A DNA stretch of 50,493 nt from a virus (IMGVR_UViG_3300040734_000024:1-50493); one strand, 5' to 3'; counted from the stretch's first letter, positions 4,675 to 50,325 are shown. The notes: generated by a model not told the origin, from the letters alone. Translations and numbers: made by a program.

Positions 4675-4706
4675 GTATTTAGCCATAATACCTAATAAAT
4701 CAATCG

Positions 4707-4749
4707 GTGTCATCACCTCCTGTTAGTTTTTTTAATAACAGGAGGTGAT
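4707..4749 (+). promoter_or_regulatory. Phage promoter-like motif, copy 3, within a 14-bp anti-SD hairpin
   Basis: GTGTCA-N16-TTTTTAATA; ATCACCTCCTGTTA / TAACAGGAGGTGAT. Confidence 0.8.
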
Positions 4750-5272: not shown

Positions 5273-5281
5273 CTCAAATCG

Positions 5282-5322
5282 GTGTCATAACCTCCAGCTA
5301 ATTTGTTTAATAGCTGGAGGTT
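5282..5322 (+). promoter_or_regulatory. Phage promoter-like motif, copy 4, within a 12-bp anti-SD hairpin
   Basis: GTGTCA-N16-TGTTTAATA; AACCTCCAGCTA / TAGCTGGAGGTT. Confidence 0.8.
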
Positions 5323-9964: not shown

Positions 9965-10765
9965 ATGCTTCCAACCACCGATCACGAGATATTGCCAGAG
10001 GATGAAATTCAGGCGCTTGTTCAAATCTACCAAAATTGTGAAGATAAAAAATCGGTAGAAGCGAAGGACGCCGCAGATGAGGTCATTGCACACAATGAAC
10101 GTTTGATCCATCGTGTCGCAATGAGCTACATGGCAACCGGATCGTGTGGGGATCAAAGTCTTGATGACCTGAAGCAATGGGGACGCATGGGTATTATCCG
10201 GGCAATGCAGGACTACGACCCGGTCAAATACTCAAACAAGTTCGTCACCTATGCATACCAATGGATACGCATGTTTATTTCGAGATATGGGAAGATCGGG
10301 CAGTCCATTTACTTTTCCGAGCAATCCCACAACATGAAGGCAGTGGTCGGGAAAGCACAAGCCATGTTTATTCAGGAAAACCACAGACCGCCAACGATCA
10401 ACGAGTTGTCTGAAATCACCGGCATTCCTGCAGAAAAAATATCCAAGCTGCACGTAGTTGTATCATCTCTTGATCGTGTAGCCGGCTCTGAAAGTGGGTC
10501 GGAAACCCTTGCTGACCTCATACCGGATGATACAGACACCGAGATCACTTCGGAGAAATCCGTCTTGACCGCTGAGATCATGGGAAAGCTGAGCAAGTTG
10601 CCTGATCGGGAGCAAACAGTAATTACCCACCTGTTTGGATTGAACGGTGAAAAGCCGCTTAGCTTACGGAAAACCGCAAGCCGTATGGGGCTGTCTGCTG
10701 AAGGCGTACGGAAAATAAAGAACAGCGCCATTATCAGATTGCGGGAAAAACAGTTGTTCGAGTAG
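9965..10765 (+). CDS. Phage-encoded RpoD/FliA-like sigma-70 factor
   Basis: DLKQWGRMGIIRAMQDYDP..KFVTYAYQWIR (region 2), region 3 RPPTINELSE, region 4 SLRKTASRMGLSAEGVRKI. Confidence 0.9.
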   Translation: MLPTTDHEILPEDEIQALVQIYQNCEDKKSVEAKDAADEVIAHNERLIHRVAMSYMATGSCGDQSLDDLKQWGRMGIIRAMQDYDPVKYSNKFVTYAYQWIRMFISRYGKIGQSIYFSEQSHNMKAVVGKAQAMFIQENHRPPTINELSEITGIPAEKISKLHVVVSSLDRVAGSESGSETLADLIPDDTDTEITSEKSVLTAEIMGKLSKLPDREQTVITHLFGLNGEKPLSLRKTASRMGLSAEGVRKIKNSAIIRLREKQLFE

Positions 10766-10796
10766 GTGTCCAAAGTAAGCAGGTATTTGTTTAATA
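10766..10796 (+). promoter_or_regulatory. Phage promoter-like motif, copy 6 (heads the RNA operon)
   Basis: GTGTCC-N16-TGTTTAATA. Confidence 0.8.
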
Positions 10797-10800
10797 CTCA

Positions 10801-10812
10801 GAACCTTGAAAA
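10801..10812 (+). promoter_or_regulatory. boxA-like antitermination element
   Basis: GAACCTTGAAAA just after the promoter; resembles rRNA-operon boxA. Confidence 0.45.
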
Positions 10813-10819
10813 TGGAATA

Positions 10820-11105
10820 AGCAATAACTGGCAACCAGTAAGCCGAGTAGACGAGTGGAACGGTTCCTCCGATGGATGCTCGTAAAACGTAGAACCCTAT
10901 TCGCATGGTTCCCAGATGTTGTACCAGCTTGTAGTTGATCTCGGTCAAAGACAGCATGTCTAAACTACAAGCTGGTTGATAAGAAACACCGTGTACTGAA
11001 ACAAGATGCTTGAGCGCTGAGATGTTTGAGTGTTGAGGGGTGTTACCAGGGACGCATCCTGGGTGAGCCCATGATCCTACGGGAACCATAAGCACGGTGG
11101 AGCAT
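10820..11105 (+). ncRNA. Putative structured RNA with long-range pseudoknot
   Basis: Pairings 10905-10913/11081-11089, 10923-10936/10963-10976, 10987-10994/11092-11099. Confidence 0.5.
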
Positions 11106-11116
11106 GCGCAAAGATT

Positions 11117-11304
11117 TGGGCGGCGGTGTTAAAACGCGAGTTCCGGGTTCGCCGGGCTTATCGGGTGTGAACACACGCGGTAGGGACGCCCGCATGGGAC
11201 GGACAGCCGTCGTACCGAGGCATATATCTATGGACGCATAGACAAGCCCGCCAGACATTATTTCGGTGCATCCCATAAATCAGGTTCAAATCCTGACCGC
11301 CCAA
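11117..11304 (+). ncRNA. Enlarged tRNA-like RNA (188 nt)
   Basis: Acceptor TGGGCGG/CCGCCCA, T arm TCAGG-TTCAAAT-CCTGA, multi-hairpin interior. Confidence 0.6.
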
Positions 11305-11320
11305 CTTTTGTACGTTATTT

Positions 11321-11439
11321 GGGGAGATCGACTAATAGGCTAGGTCACTGGAACGAAATCTGGAAACTACTGTGAAGTACAAGCAGACTATCCAGAAAGT
11401 AAATTGCCAGAAAAGGACGTTCGAAGCGTTCACTCTCCA
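11321..11439 (+). ncRNA. tRNA-like RNA with extended anticodon arm and G3:U70 pair (119 nt)
   Basis: GGGGAGA/ACTCTCC acceptor, D arm GACT..GGTC, CTGG/CCAG stem with 55-nt insert, T arm GGACG-TTCGAAG-CGTTC. Confidence 0.6.
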
Positions 11440-11451
11440 CAAGACGTGGTT

Positions 11452-11523
11452 GACTTTGTCCGTTCAAACAAGTCTATAAAAATGGTAAGAACGGATAGCG
11501 TCACCTGCTTCAGTGGTGAGACC
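11452..11523 (+). ncRNA. Pseudoknot RNA with pistol-ribozyme-like topology
   Basis: P1 GACTT/AAGTC, loop TGTCCGTTC pairs with GAACGGATA, TATAAA linker, GCG then TCACC/GGTGA stem. Confidence 0.3.
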
Positions 11524-11588
11524 TCTGGCACATAGGCAGAGCGCGACCGCGCTGTAAAAGCGGCGAGCCGGTGGAATGCCGGCACCCC

Positions 11589-11660
11589 TGCGGGATAGAG
11601 AAGCGGTTATCTCGGCTGGCTCATAACCAGCGATCGGTAGTTCGAATCTACCTCCCGCAA
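11589..11660 (+). tRNA. tRNA-Met(CAT), initiator-like D arm and anticodon loop
   Basis: Full cloverleaf; TGCGGGA/TCCCGCA, GCTGG-CTCATAA-CCAGC, GGTAG-TTCGAAT-CTACC. Confidence 0.9.
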
Positions 11661-11667
11661 CAGAGAG

Positions 11668-11946
11668 CAGCAACTTGGGAAGGGTTGCTGAACACCAGGA
11701 TAAGAATTCCCAACCGAGCGGCGAGCCGCCTAGAAGTCGGTAAACAGTCAGGTCCCTGGACGTAGGAAAGACGCTAACTAAACCTAGCCTGATACGCTGC
11801 GGCGCAGGCAATCACCGGCTGTGCTCTTTGGGAAGGTGTAGAATGCACCACGTACCGGTACAGCCGGTGAACATGAAATCTAGCCCACGTTTACCGGTAT
11901 TGCTGTGGGCTTGATACCAGGGTGTCTCAATACCTCCCGCCCTGGC
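11668..11946 (+). ncRNA. Putative structured RNA between the two tRNAs
   Basis: Stems 11668-11675/11683-11690, 11812-11824/11858-11870, 11882-11888/11905-11911; pseudoknot 11675-11681/11707-11713. Confidence 0.5.
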
Positions 11947-11955
11947 ATGCAAGAA

Positions 11956-12027
11956 GCCGAAGTAGCTCAGTGGCAGAGCAATTGGTTTGTGATCAGTAGG
12001 TCGCTGGTTCGACCCCAGCCTTCGGCT
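11956..12027 (+). tRNA. tRNA-Thr(TGT)
   Basis: GCCGAAG/CTTCGGC acceptor, GCTC/GAGC D stem, loop TT-TGT-GA, T arm GCTGG-TTCGACC-CCAGC; weak anticodon stem. Confidence 0.85.
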
Positions 12028-12132
12028 TTAGACGGTGTAGTGACCGTCGAGTGACTTCTCCTACCCTTGAAGGGCGGTCTCTTGGCGAGGAGCGCCAGGA
12101 GACCGTAAGGGGGAGTTGTTTATCAGGAGACT

Positions 12133-12870
12133 ATGAAAAAAATACTCAGCATCAATGCCCTTTTATGGGTAATTTATATCGCATTACTGGCCGTCCTTTT
12201 TCCTCATACCGCATGGGCGTTCGGGCAATTTGAACCGTCCACCGGGCAGGTATGGGTATCATGGGCGGCCGCTTTGGCGTTTGAGGCCGCTATCGCCGCT
12301 CTTACCCACAAGCTGTCAAAGCACATTGAACAGACACCGAAACGGCTGTCTGCTGGAAAGAAATTCACCTATCGCTATCTAAACGCTTATTCGCTTGGGC
12401 TGGTAGCTGCATTAGGTCTATCTTCACTCGCTAACCTGGCGCATGCGGTCGAGTTCGGCCGCCAGATGGCGATATTCACCGAATGGAATATTCCGTTCGG
12501 TGTTTTTGCTATCTCGTTCGGAGCCATATTACCGCTCATTAGTTTGACCTTCGCTCGGGTTCTCTCGAATGTGGCAGAGACCGAATCGGATGACGACCCG
12601 GAGTTGATCCAGGCGAAGGAAACCATTGGCGACCTTCGCAAACAACTGAGGGAAGCGAACAAGGAAGTTGAGACAGCGAATAAGCGAGCCGATACAGCCG
12701 AAGGTAAGTTCGGTTCAATGGGGGACGTAGTAAATGGCTTGTTCGCTGAGGATAAGCAAAAGCGAATTGTTACCGTACATAACCAGTGGCCGGCACTCAC
12801 CGGATCGGCCATTGCGATCATCGCCGAAAGTTCGCCGGCGTACGTGTCAGAAATCCTGAGCAAGGAATAG
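12133..12870 (+). CDS. Multi-pass membrane protein with coiled coil and C-terminal HTH-like tail
   Basis: About four hydrophobic segments, then a heptad-rich region; AGGAG RBS. Confidence 0.75.
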   Translation: MKKILSINALLWVIYIALLAVLFPHTAWAFGQFEPSTGQVWVSWAAALAFEAAIAALTHKLSKHIEQTPKRLSAGKKFTYRYLNAYSLGLVAALGLSSLANLAHAVEFGRQMAIFTEWNIPFGVFAISFGAILPLISLTFARVLSNVAETESDDDPELIQAKETIGDLRKQLREANKEVETANKRADTAEGKFGSMGDVVNGLFAEDKQKRIVTVHNQWPALTGSAIAIIAESSPAYVSEILSKE

Positions 12871-16247: not shown

Positions 16248-16261
16248 CCTCCAATAATAAA

Positions 16262-16301
16262 GTGTCCAAACCTCCGGCTAGTTTGTTTAATAGCCGGAGG
16301 T
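16262..16301 (+). promoter_or_regulatory. Phage promoter-like motif, copy 7, within an 11-bp anti-SD hairpin
   Basis: GTGTCC-N16-TGTTTAATA; ACCTCCGGCTA / TAGCCGGAGGT. Confidence 0.8.
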
Positions 16302-49407: not shown

Positions 49408-50325
49408 ATGAGGTACTATGCTAAAGGGAGGGAGCGCTTATTTGTTTTTGCTCCTCCCAGACGGAGAACTACACTGACCAATACCGGATCGTTACCATTA
49501 TCTAAAGCTATTGAGGGATTTATGTTAGCTTGCCGCGCACGCCGTTTATCGGTACATACGATTGCGGACTACGAGCGGACTTTACGCAAATTCCTGACCC
49601 ATGTGGGCGATTCGCCCATACGGGTCATTACCAGGACACAGATTGAGGCTTTCTTGGCCGCCCAGCCTTTCTCATCAAAAACCGTGCTCAATTACCATAT
49701 TGGCCTAGCAGCACCATGGACTTGGGCGTTCCGGGAAGGGTATGTCGATGTTCATATCGTGCGCCAGGTCGTAAAGCCTAAACCACAGCGGGTAGTGATC
49801 GACCCGTTTACGGACGTTGAGGTACGAGCTATGCTCGCATCCGTCAAACGGAATACCGACCGTGACCGGGCGATCATATTCCTGCTGCTGGATACCGGTG
49901 TGCGTGCGTCGGAATTGTGCGGTTTGGACATAAAGGATATTGACCTTGCGTCCAGGAAAATCAAGGTGCTGGGGAAAGGAAACAAAGAGCGTTTCCTTCC
50001 GATCAGCTCACGGACAGCTTCGATTGTTTTCAAATATACATCAATGGCTGAATTGATAAAACCATTCCCGTTCACCAGAACAAGCCTGGCGCATTTAATC
50101 CAGCAGATCGGAAAGAGGGCAGGTATTCAAGATGCACACCCGCACCGTTTTCGTCATACCTTTGCGATCAATTATTTACGTAACGGGGGAGACCCTTATA
50201 CACTTCAGGAGATCCTCGGGCATAGCACGCTTGAGATGGTCAAGCGGTACCTCGCATTGGCGCAGGTCGATGTTGACAGCGCCCATAAACGAGCAAGCCC
50301 GGTTGAGAACTGGAAACTTGGATAA
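49408..50325 (+). CDS. int: Tyrosine recombinase / integrase
   Basis: DTGVRASE, GKGNKER, HPHRFRHTFA, LGH, VKRY catalytic motifs; adjacent to att. Confidence 0.95.
   Translation: MRYYAKGRERLFVFAPPRRRTTLTNTGSLPLSKAIEGFMLACRARRLSVHTIADYERTLRKFLTHVGDSPIRVITRTQIEAFLAAQPFSSKTVLNYHIGLAAPWTWAFREGYVDVHIVRQVVKPKPQRVVIDPFTDVEVRAMLASVKRNTDRDRAIIFLLLDTGVRASELCGLDIKDIDLASRKIKVLGKGNKERFLPISSRTASIVFKYTSMAELIKPFPFTRTSLAHLIQQIGKRAGIQDAHPHRFRHTFAINYLRNGGDPYTLQEILGHSTLEMVKRYLALAQVDVDSAHKRASPVENWKLG

Follow-up and report, generated by a model that had tools for sequence, protein, structure and literature searches.

The window analysed here is a 50,493-base virus record of IMG/VR (IMGVR_UViG_3300040734_000024:1-50493), in which a stretch of 1,367 nucleotides (nt) between a sigma factor gene and the gene beginning at 12133 holds an array of tRNAs and other predicted RNAs. 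The sigma gene, the signals at the head of the array and its four tRNA-shaped units are arranged as follows.

9965..10765, + strand: phage sigma-70-family gene (regions 2, 3 and 4 by Pfam), directly 5' of the array; it marks the array slot in relatives
10767..10796, + strand: promoter-like repeat, copy 5 of 8, the only copy without a following ribosome-binding site and ATG
10801..10813, + strand: boxA, matching the rRNA-operon boxA of Anaerolineae-class genomes
11117..11304, + strand: scaffold TLS1, 156-nt body enclosed by seven acceptor pairs and a perfect T-arm
11321..11439, + strand: scaffold TLS2, a full tRNA body with D-arm, anticodon stem and T-arm
11589..11661, + strand: tRNA-Met(CAT), ARAGORN and Rfam (60.8 bits); same slot in the related locus L004
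11955..12028, + strand: tRNA-Thr(TGT), ARAGORN and Rfam (64.5 bits)

A note made earlier from the sequence alone (the original prediction) had seen no convincing plus-strand open reading frame (ORF) from the sigma gene to 12133. We found none of at least 70 amino acids between 10765 and 12133; the plus frames contain 20-23 stop codons each, with a longest stop-free run of 81 codons, and the minus strand carries three short overlapping ORFs of 77-143 amino acids. The promoter-like repeat, TGTC-N-TTGTTTAATA, occurs in eight plus-strand copies in the window. A GGAG-type site and an ATG follow within about 35 nt 3' of seven copies, and only the array copy lacks them. A promoter copy had been predicted to open the array, and it does, although our scan numbers it as the fifth copy and not the sixth.

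The boxA begins 4 nt 3' of this repeat, at the head of the untranslated array, and its pattern has no other copy on either strand of the window. In five Anaerolineae-class genomes the pattern, G(A/C)ACCTT(A/G)A(A/C)AAY, gave 13 matches against 0 for the reversed control. Six of the 13 adjoin a 16S start or end motif, and in two more cases such a site follows about 1.95 kb downstream; the other five were not placed. Rfam confirmed rRNA at both of the boxA loci tested. What had been called a boxA-like site thus matches the rRNA boxA of the host group, and it recurs behind the sigma gene in relatives (below). BoxA recruits NusB and S10 for antitermination. No U-tail terminator was found on the plus strand inside the array, and with none at its 3' end either, transcription likely continues into the gene at 12133.

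A scan for perfect T-arms detected four in the 1,367-nt region, compared with one on the plus and three on the minus strand of the other 49,126 nt, in agreement with the two canonical tRNAs and two tRNA-like modules that had been predicted. The Met and Thr tRNAs, found by ARAGORN and Rfam alike, pass the RF00005 gathering score, whereas TLS1 and TLS2 are not reported by Rfam; none of the four units encodes CCA. The tRNA-Met of the window and of L004 has A11-U24 as initiators do, from which we take that of the window to be initiator-derived, but it has U1-A72 and only two of the three anticodon-stem G-C pairs. Position 37 of the tRNA-Thr anticodon loop is G in the window and A in L050 and L084.

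The acceptor stem of TLS1 consists of seven Watson-Crick pairs out of seven, including U1-A72 and G3-C70, followed by A73, and bears no alanine mark. Its body has a predicted 7-bp pseudoknot (11153/11250) and no clear D-arm; the z score of the fold is -2.57 and the chance of its acceptor closure is 0.049. Both ends of TLS1, but not its middle, are kept in the contig of a close relative, a weak indication from one contig. The cloverleaf of TLS2 is its minimum free energy fold (z -1.7), in which stacked helices with A-rich internal loops, about 50 nt in all, fill the place of the anticodon loop, and its acceptor reads G1-C72, G2-C71, G3·U70, G4-C69 and A73. A 35-nt match to the 5' end of TLS1 (89%) in L194 (G327:C8:640936-640970), which belongs to one of the Anaerolineae-class genomes sampled, is followed by no T-arm and may be due to chance.

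Related loci were gathered by a sigma profile search of viral and metagenome contigs. In five of the eight whose sequence downstream of sigma was examined (L004, L050, L082, L083 and L084), boxA stands 33-50 nt after the sigma stop codon; L050, L083 and L084 are one type (98% identical over the first 380 nt), and L085 ends 16 nt after the sigma stop. The non-coding array is about 1.27 kb long in L004 and about 1.4-1.45 kb in L050/L084. The sigma proteins of the array-bearing phages are only 41-49% identical, yet boxA and array length are kept.

Across the arrays we counted, besides the canonical tRNAs, eight types of scaffold, defined by an acceptor stem and a T-arm in the absence of a normal anticodon arm. 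Four types belong to L004 and two to the window; L086 has one, and L050, L082, L083 and L084 share the eighth. The count omits a unit of ambiguous register in a different phage (L180) and a Tyr-like remnant in the window, and the units were read with a 7/5 acceptor branch, alternative registers not having been searched systematically. The T-stems of all scaffold units are fully paired. The unit at 2456-2539 of L086 is a tRNA body (Rfam tRNA, 54.6 bits) whose anticodon arm is a C-rich hairpin that also occurs on its own, in L004 as well as in such phage loci as L171, L180 and L181. Between units L050_a and L082_a, four of the seven acceptor pairs have changed on both sides with none broken, and the T-stem shows one two-sided and one one-sided change, again with none broken, while G3·U70, A73 and nearly all cargo letters are kept. 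Chassis and cargo therefore vary independently, as is evident from the hairpin lodged in a tRNA body and from this compensatory change around a kept cargo. The units had rightly been described as tRNA-shaped; that they are tRNA bodies bearing cargo, often with alanine identity, had been missed.

G3·U70 is present in five of the eight scaffold types but, in rough register, in only two of the 46 ARAGORN tRNAs of the studied loci (binomial p of 1.5e-5 to 3e-3 for baselines of 0.05-0.15). Alanyl-tRNA synthetase ignores the anticodon. The G3·U70 pair is the main alanine determinant and governs alanylation (PMC9976931).

The same mark would be expected if the anticodon-less, alanine-marked units resembled transfer-messenger RNA (tmRNA) reduced to its tRNA-like domain (TLD), titrating SmpB and inhibiting ribosome rescue, with the rest of the array as passenger RNA. 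The likeness lies in alanine identity without an anticodon: G3·U70 occurs with A73 in TLS2 and in three relatives, mycobacteriophage DS6A provides a precedent with its TLD-only RNA, and inhibition of tmRNA is reported for a similar molecule (PMC4131195). TLS1, however, lacks the mark. Further, the TLD has been described as having no anticodon stem-loop (PMC4131195), whereas TLS2 holds no tag reading frame and, together with L050_a, L082_a and L086_a, keeps a D-stem and a cargo-extended anticodon stem at the place where SmpB sits in tmRNA. Neither ARAGORN nor Rfam called a tmRNA, and the conserved cargo sequences would be left unexplained. We consider this explanation unlikely.

Behind boxA, the arrays differ. 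By blastn, the promoter-boxA segment and tRNA-Met are all that the window has in common with L004, and tRNA-Thr is all that it shares with L050/L084; a further module of the window (H, below) was found in L004 by pattern and hand alignment. Different contents thus occupy one conserved slot, so that the array appears from these comparisons to be made of independent, small, swappable cassettes, which argues against one large RNA. The original prediction had pointed to a new large non-coding RNA in the sense of GOLLD and ROOL, that is, one ornate molecule with tRNAs in its linkers and a single tertiary or cage structure. Like the array, those RNAs are non-coding, of unknown function, and borne by phages or prophages beside tRNAs, and the GOLLD linker can hold tRNAs (10.1101/2024.12.08.627333). 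The long folds of the two array halves (z -2.9 and -6.6) would also suit a large RNA, as would a multi-junction block of about 220 nt that follows directly on the scaffold in L050 (3210-3425) and L082 (1265-1480), has no Rfam match and lies in a block 81% identical between the two. GOLLD and ROOL are, however, single RNAs with a conserved core that form cages, many GOLLD RNAs exceeding 800 nt (10.1101/2024.12.08.627333), whereas the array is modular, matches no GOLLD, ROOL or OLE model at E <= 10 and shows no conserved long core. Its relatives share different small subsets of modules, and a close relative's contig skips the sequence between 11306 and 11579 (weak evidence from one contig at depth 3.2 with a 30-nt side). 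A single large RNA is, accordingly, improbable.

Wider searches returned little. In 78 more distant viral sigma loci (27-32% identity) there was no blastn similarity to the arrays. Among 401 Anaerolineae-class genomes, the best matches of the sigma profile were long host-type sigma factors, modules G and H gave two weak matches in coding-like sequence, the 5' modules one weak match, and the C-rich hairpin one match against two in the control; these tallies include genomes G351 and G394, on neither of which a positive claim rests. Against GenBank phages, all blastn matches listed (the best 30 of 685 records) were of tRNA length. Four blastn matches of module A and five of L004 cassettes were set aside as chance. 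One of three promoter-boxA pattern matches in viral contigs was real (that in L032 lies in a coding region), as were one of 16 for the module H pattern and one of three for that of module G; a T-arm in L026 proved to be a duplicated tRNA end.

The remaining units of the array are listed here, with z scores for their folds.

10815..10903, + strand: module A, weak fold (z -0.19)
10923..10976, + strand: module B, 14-bp stem with a three-way-junction cap (z -4.0)
10987..11099, + strand: module C, closed multi-hairpin (z -2.1)
11445..11510, + strand: spacer hairpin module, seen in the long fold
11512..11590, + strand: possible decayed tRNA-Tyr-like unit, by eye only and unsupported; non-canonical T-loop, z -0.65, missed by the T-arm scan
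11668..11825, + strand: module G, an RNA of several helices, with a pseudoknot predicted; a homologue occurs in phage locus L176
11830..11950, + strand: module H, predicted H-type pseudoknot and hairpin (z -2.2); homologue in L004
12031..12120, + strand: 3' hairpins (z -6.6), no U-tail terminator

At least five structured RNAs besides the two tRNAs had been predicted. Modules B, C and H and the 3' hairpins fold better than shuffled sequences and module G has a homologue in L176 (blastn, 75% over 121 nt, E 9e-13), whereas module A does not stand out (z about -0.2). Mean z in 120-nt segments was -1.39 in the array and -0.63 in 116 background segments. In the covariance-model check against Rfam of the window, the region and the relatives, only tRNA passed. 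Matches to FMN, RT-2, SNORD11B and Plastid-ycf2 were rejected as far below gathering, and likenesses to pistol, hatchet and HDV/theta ribozymes, RNase P and the TPP riboswitch, noted by eye, had no Rfam support. Homology of module A to the T4 RNA RNAC was also rejected; the 13-mer common to both is not significant: 7 of 500 shuffles did as well, and the comparison was one of 12. The hairpin loops of module H in the two phages (window 11920-11940; L004 5790-5800) have CCUCC in common and are otherwise different; this motif is anti-Shine-Dalgarno-like, and each loop could alternatively pair with a different upstream segment.

Decay might also give such an appearance: the array would then be a run of tRNA genes in which insertion-disrupted pseudogenes alternate with junk spacers that fold by chance. 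The Tyr-like remnant at 11512 does look decayed, the excess of folding over background is not significant when taken segment by segment, and most modules of the window lack a homologue. Yet the T-stems are all fully paired and the TLS1 acceptor is intact; L050_a and L082_a show compensatory change with conserved cargo; boxA and array length have outlasted the divergence of the sigma proteins; and modules G and H recur in other phages. Decay is in our view an improbable explanation. That the inserts are introns spliced out to yield ordinary tRNAs is very improbable, for although ARAGORN at a lowered threshold gives TLS2 a 46-nt anticodon-loop intron, that call leaves an A·G stem-closing pair, a non-canonical loop and the anticodon AAA on an alanine-marked body, Rfam matches no group I or II intron, the inserts are far shorter than self-splicing introns, and the same cargo also stands free.

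The reading that we favor, with a probability of roughly 0.6, is that the array gives rise to one antiterminated transcript, which the tRNA-processing enzymes of the host would cut to yield decoding tRNAs together with scaffold and spacer RNAs. The phage promoter would start a single untranslated RNA, and host rRNA antitermination proteins assembled at boxA would carry the polymerase through the array. RNase P, RNase Z and the CCA-adding enzyme would then cut and finish the four tRNA-shaped units, of which two would serve as decoding tRNAs and two as scaffolds for cargo, and several spacer RNAs would be released. Through its acceptor stem and T-arm, a scaffold would gain exact ends, receive CCA and resist nucleases; engineered scaffolds that combine an acceptor stem, T- and D-arms with cargo in the anticodon position undergo processing in vivo and are protected there (PMC3753655). 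In TLS2, G3·U70 would also allow the unit to be alanylated independently of an anticodon and to be bound by EF-Tu. The specific task of a scaffold would fall to the cargo that takes the place of the anticodon arm. The original prediction of a polycistronic, boxA-protected and tRNA-punctuated RNA fits this picture through the host-type boxA that recurs closely behind sigma in relatives; its single large RNA does not.

Several observations weigh against our reading. The strongest evidence for scaffolds comes from the relatives and not from the window's own units: acceptor closure like that of TLS2 is by itself frequent by chance (0.61), and no diverged homologues of the TLS1 or TLS2 cargo, or of modules A, B and C and the spacer at 11445, were found in GenBank phages, viral loci or Anaerolineae-class genomes. 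BoxA is absent from L086 and L051, of which L086 bears a scaffold and L051 has no array. In L176, module G and the C-rich hairpin occur with no T-arm at all, and scaffolds are therefore not required. The continuous base-pairing potential originally claimed for the region was overstated, because the local folding excess is not significant (Mann-Whitney p = 0.13 for 11 non-overlapping 120-nt windows against background). With hand-set helices and two sequences in each comparison, the pairs of module G showed two two-sided and two one-sided changes and three broken pairs against L176, leaving out two-sided changes reported by RNAalifold at columns 46-47, which were an alignment shift; those of module H showed one two-sided change, one one-sided change and one broken pair against L004. 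The alanine mark is also uneven. The full set G1-C72, G2-C71, G3·U70 and A73 is found in only four of the eight types, TLS2 included; read in the 7/5 register, TLS1, L004_a and L004_c are without G3·U70. Position 73 is C in L004_d, and the first acceptor pair of L082_a is C1-G72; either feature weakens alanylation. Further, the scaffolds may derive from one tRNA-Ala body, which would explain part of the G3·U70 enrichment, so that the binomial test overstates it. Among the sequencing runs listed, none that holds the phage was of RNA. Finally, nothing links the array to a specific defence system.

This last point bears on purpose. The purpose that we find most likely, although at clearly less than even odds, is that the array would keep translation running for the phage against a host defence that targets tRNAs: altered tRNAs and anticodon-less mimics would counter host tRNA-cutting defences, while cargo and spacer RNAs would act on host mRNAs or proteins. 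Phage tRNAs with changed anticodon loops have been proposed to withstand host tRNases (PMC10264068), and the altered Met and Thr tRNAs of the array agree with such evasion of anticodon nucleases but are no proof of it. A broader proposal, which we put forward tentatively, is that the arrays could form a natural tRNA-scaffold platform in which alanine-chargeable bodies with interchangeable cargo, made under rRNA-style antitermination, would be delivered by EF-Tu to or near the ribosome.

The C-rich hairpin, in which GGUUG/CAACC forms the stem and CCCCC(C/U)U the loop, was found by pattern in 12 viral loci, among them L004 (4796-5330), L086 (2456-2539), L171, L172, L176, L177 and L179-L182, and is absent from the window. 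It stands alone after promoter-like sequence in L171 and L181 and beside tRNA-like genes in L180; L004 has four variants, and elsewhere it lies inside tRNA bodies. In L174, L175 and L178 it falls within long reading frames and may be due to chance. The hairpin has no Rfam match and is likely an undescribed phage small RNA. The unit at 1918-1990 of L180, a different phage, is tRNA-like with a 4-nt loop for an anticodon loop and lies directly 5' of the hairpin. The C-rich loops of 6C RNA bind mRNAs (PMC6486639) and resemble the C-rich cargo of L004 and L086, but no 6C Rfam match was found in L030, L086, L171, L180 or L181.

The closest known kind to the array is formed by RNAC (species 1) and RNAD (species 2) of T4, small stable RNAs of unknown role from the phage tRNA region (PMC3014915, PMC9697503). 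RNAC folds with a terminal stem and a T-arm around enlarged arms, as does TLS1, a likeness of architecture only; a covariance model of six RNAC homologues had no match in eight array loci (best E 0.7 with filters off). Moreover, T4 has two fixed extra RNAs among eight tRNAs, whereas the phage array has mostly swappable non-tRNA cassettes behind an rRNA boxA, together with cargo-bearing tRNA bodies. In the RNAC homologues (L183 609-747 and L184-L188), the loops of two long hairpins look complementary by eye, which suggests a kissing-loop pseudoknot.

The scaffolds share with the engineered tRNA scaffold (PMC3753655) the kept acceptor stem, T- and D-arms and the cargo at the anticodon stem-loop; that scaffold is a laboratory construct, whereas the phage arrays are natural and their cargo has been exchanged in evolution. 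Polycistrons of irregular tRNAs and allo-tRNAs likewise consist of tandem irregular units, some of them charged yet unused in translation (PMC5389517). Those described have 8/4 or 9/3 branches, keep their anticodons and lie beside toxin-antitoxin genes in Acidobacteria (PMC5389517), in contrast to the phage scaffolds, whose branch we read as 7/5 and whose anticodon arm is replaced. YrlA RNAs, including some of phages, join a tRNA-like domain to another module (PMC4201824), but the YrlA acceptor stem is an internal stem-loop, whereas that of the phage scaffold is formed by the two ends of the RNA. No YrlA or 6C Rfam match was found in the arrays and no Ro60 among the 57 window proteins scanned; a sub-threshold YrlA match in L180 lies outside its array. 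No description of natural phage tRNA scaffolds with exchangeable anticodon-arm cargo was found in the titles and abstract openings of open-access papers. Published lists of candidate phage RNAs may hold single modules of such arrays. A review of non-canonical tRNAs (PMC7609411) does not mention phages.

The array is followed by one further gene.

12133..12870, + strand: predicted membrane-protein gene of a large unnamed family, usually without an array in other loci

The family of its product (459 matches) is common in Anaerolineae genomes and their phages and has no Pfam family above the cut-off. The array is unlikely to be a cis-regulatory leader of this gene, because boxA lies upstream in only one of the gene's 25 loci (a count that omits L023, with an upstream sequence of only 77 nt). 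Since relatives of the gene are mostly in genomes of Anaerolineae and other Chloroflexota, the host of the phage is likely an Anaerolineae bacterium. CheckV estimates the window as 67% complete; a 55-nt direct repeat at both of its ends and an integrase at 49408-50325 indicate that it is most likely an entire prophage, bounded by its attachment sites. In L050 (4507-5082) and L086 (2689-3270), the post-array gene appears by eye to be like PolX or the nucleotidyltransferase fold, with no Pfam match, and no such gene was seen among the window proteins read. The window has two sigma-like genes, at 1421-2113 and 9965-10765. The first promoter copy lies directly 3' of the former, and the repeat could therefore be read by either sigma. 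Three copies (4702-4746, 5277-5321 and 16257-16301) lie in the loops of hairpins that pair with the downstream ribosome-binding site, a possible coupling of promoter and translation control.

Because chassis and cargo vary independently in these arrays, they offer a testable approach to a long-standing puzzle, namely what role tRNA-shaped RNAs such as RNAC and RNAD have in phage tRNA clusters. Standard annotation misses most units of the array, ARAGORN and Rfam reporting two of about nine, and each such array is a source of new RNA families. Phages may borrow rRNA antitermination together with tRNA processing, and in this way obtain many small RNAs from one promoter. If our reading is true, the array would represent the natural form of a trick used in laboratories, the "tRNA scaffold", and tools for RNA expression could gain from natural scaffolds. 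Should the platform proposal hold as well, its cargo would comprise C-rich mRNA-binding loops, pseudoknots and protein decoys, and the arrays would correspond, in RNA alone, to the accessory-gene hotspots of phages, with several undescribed RNA families per genome.

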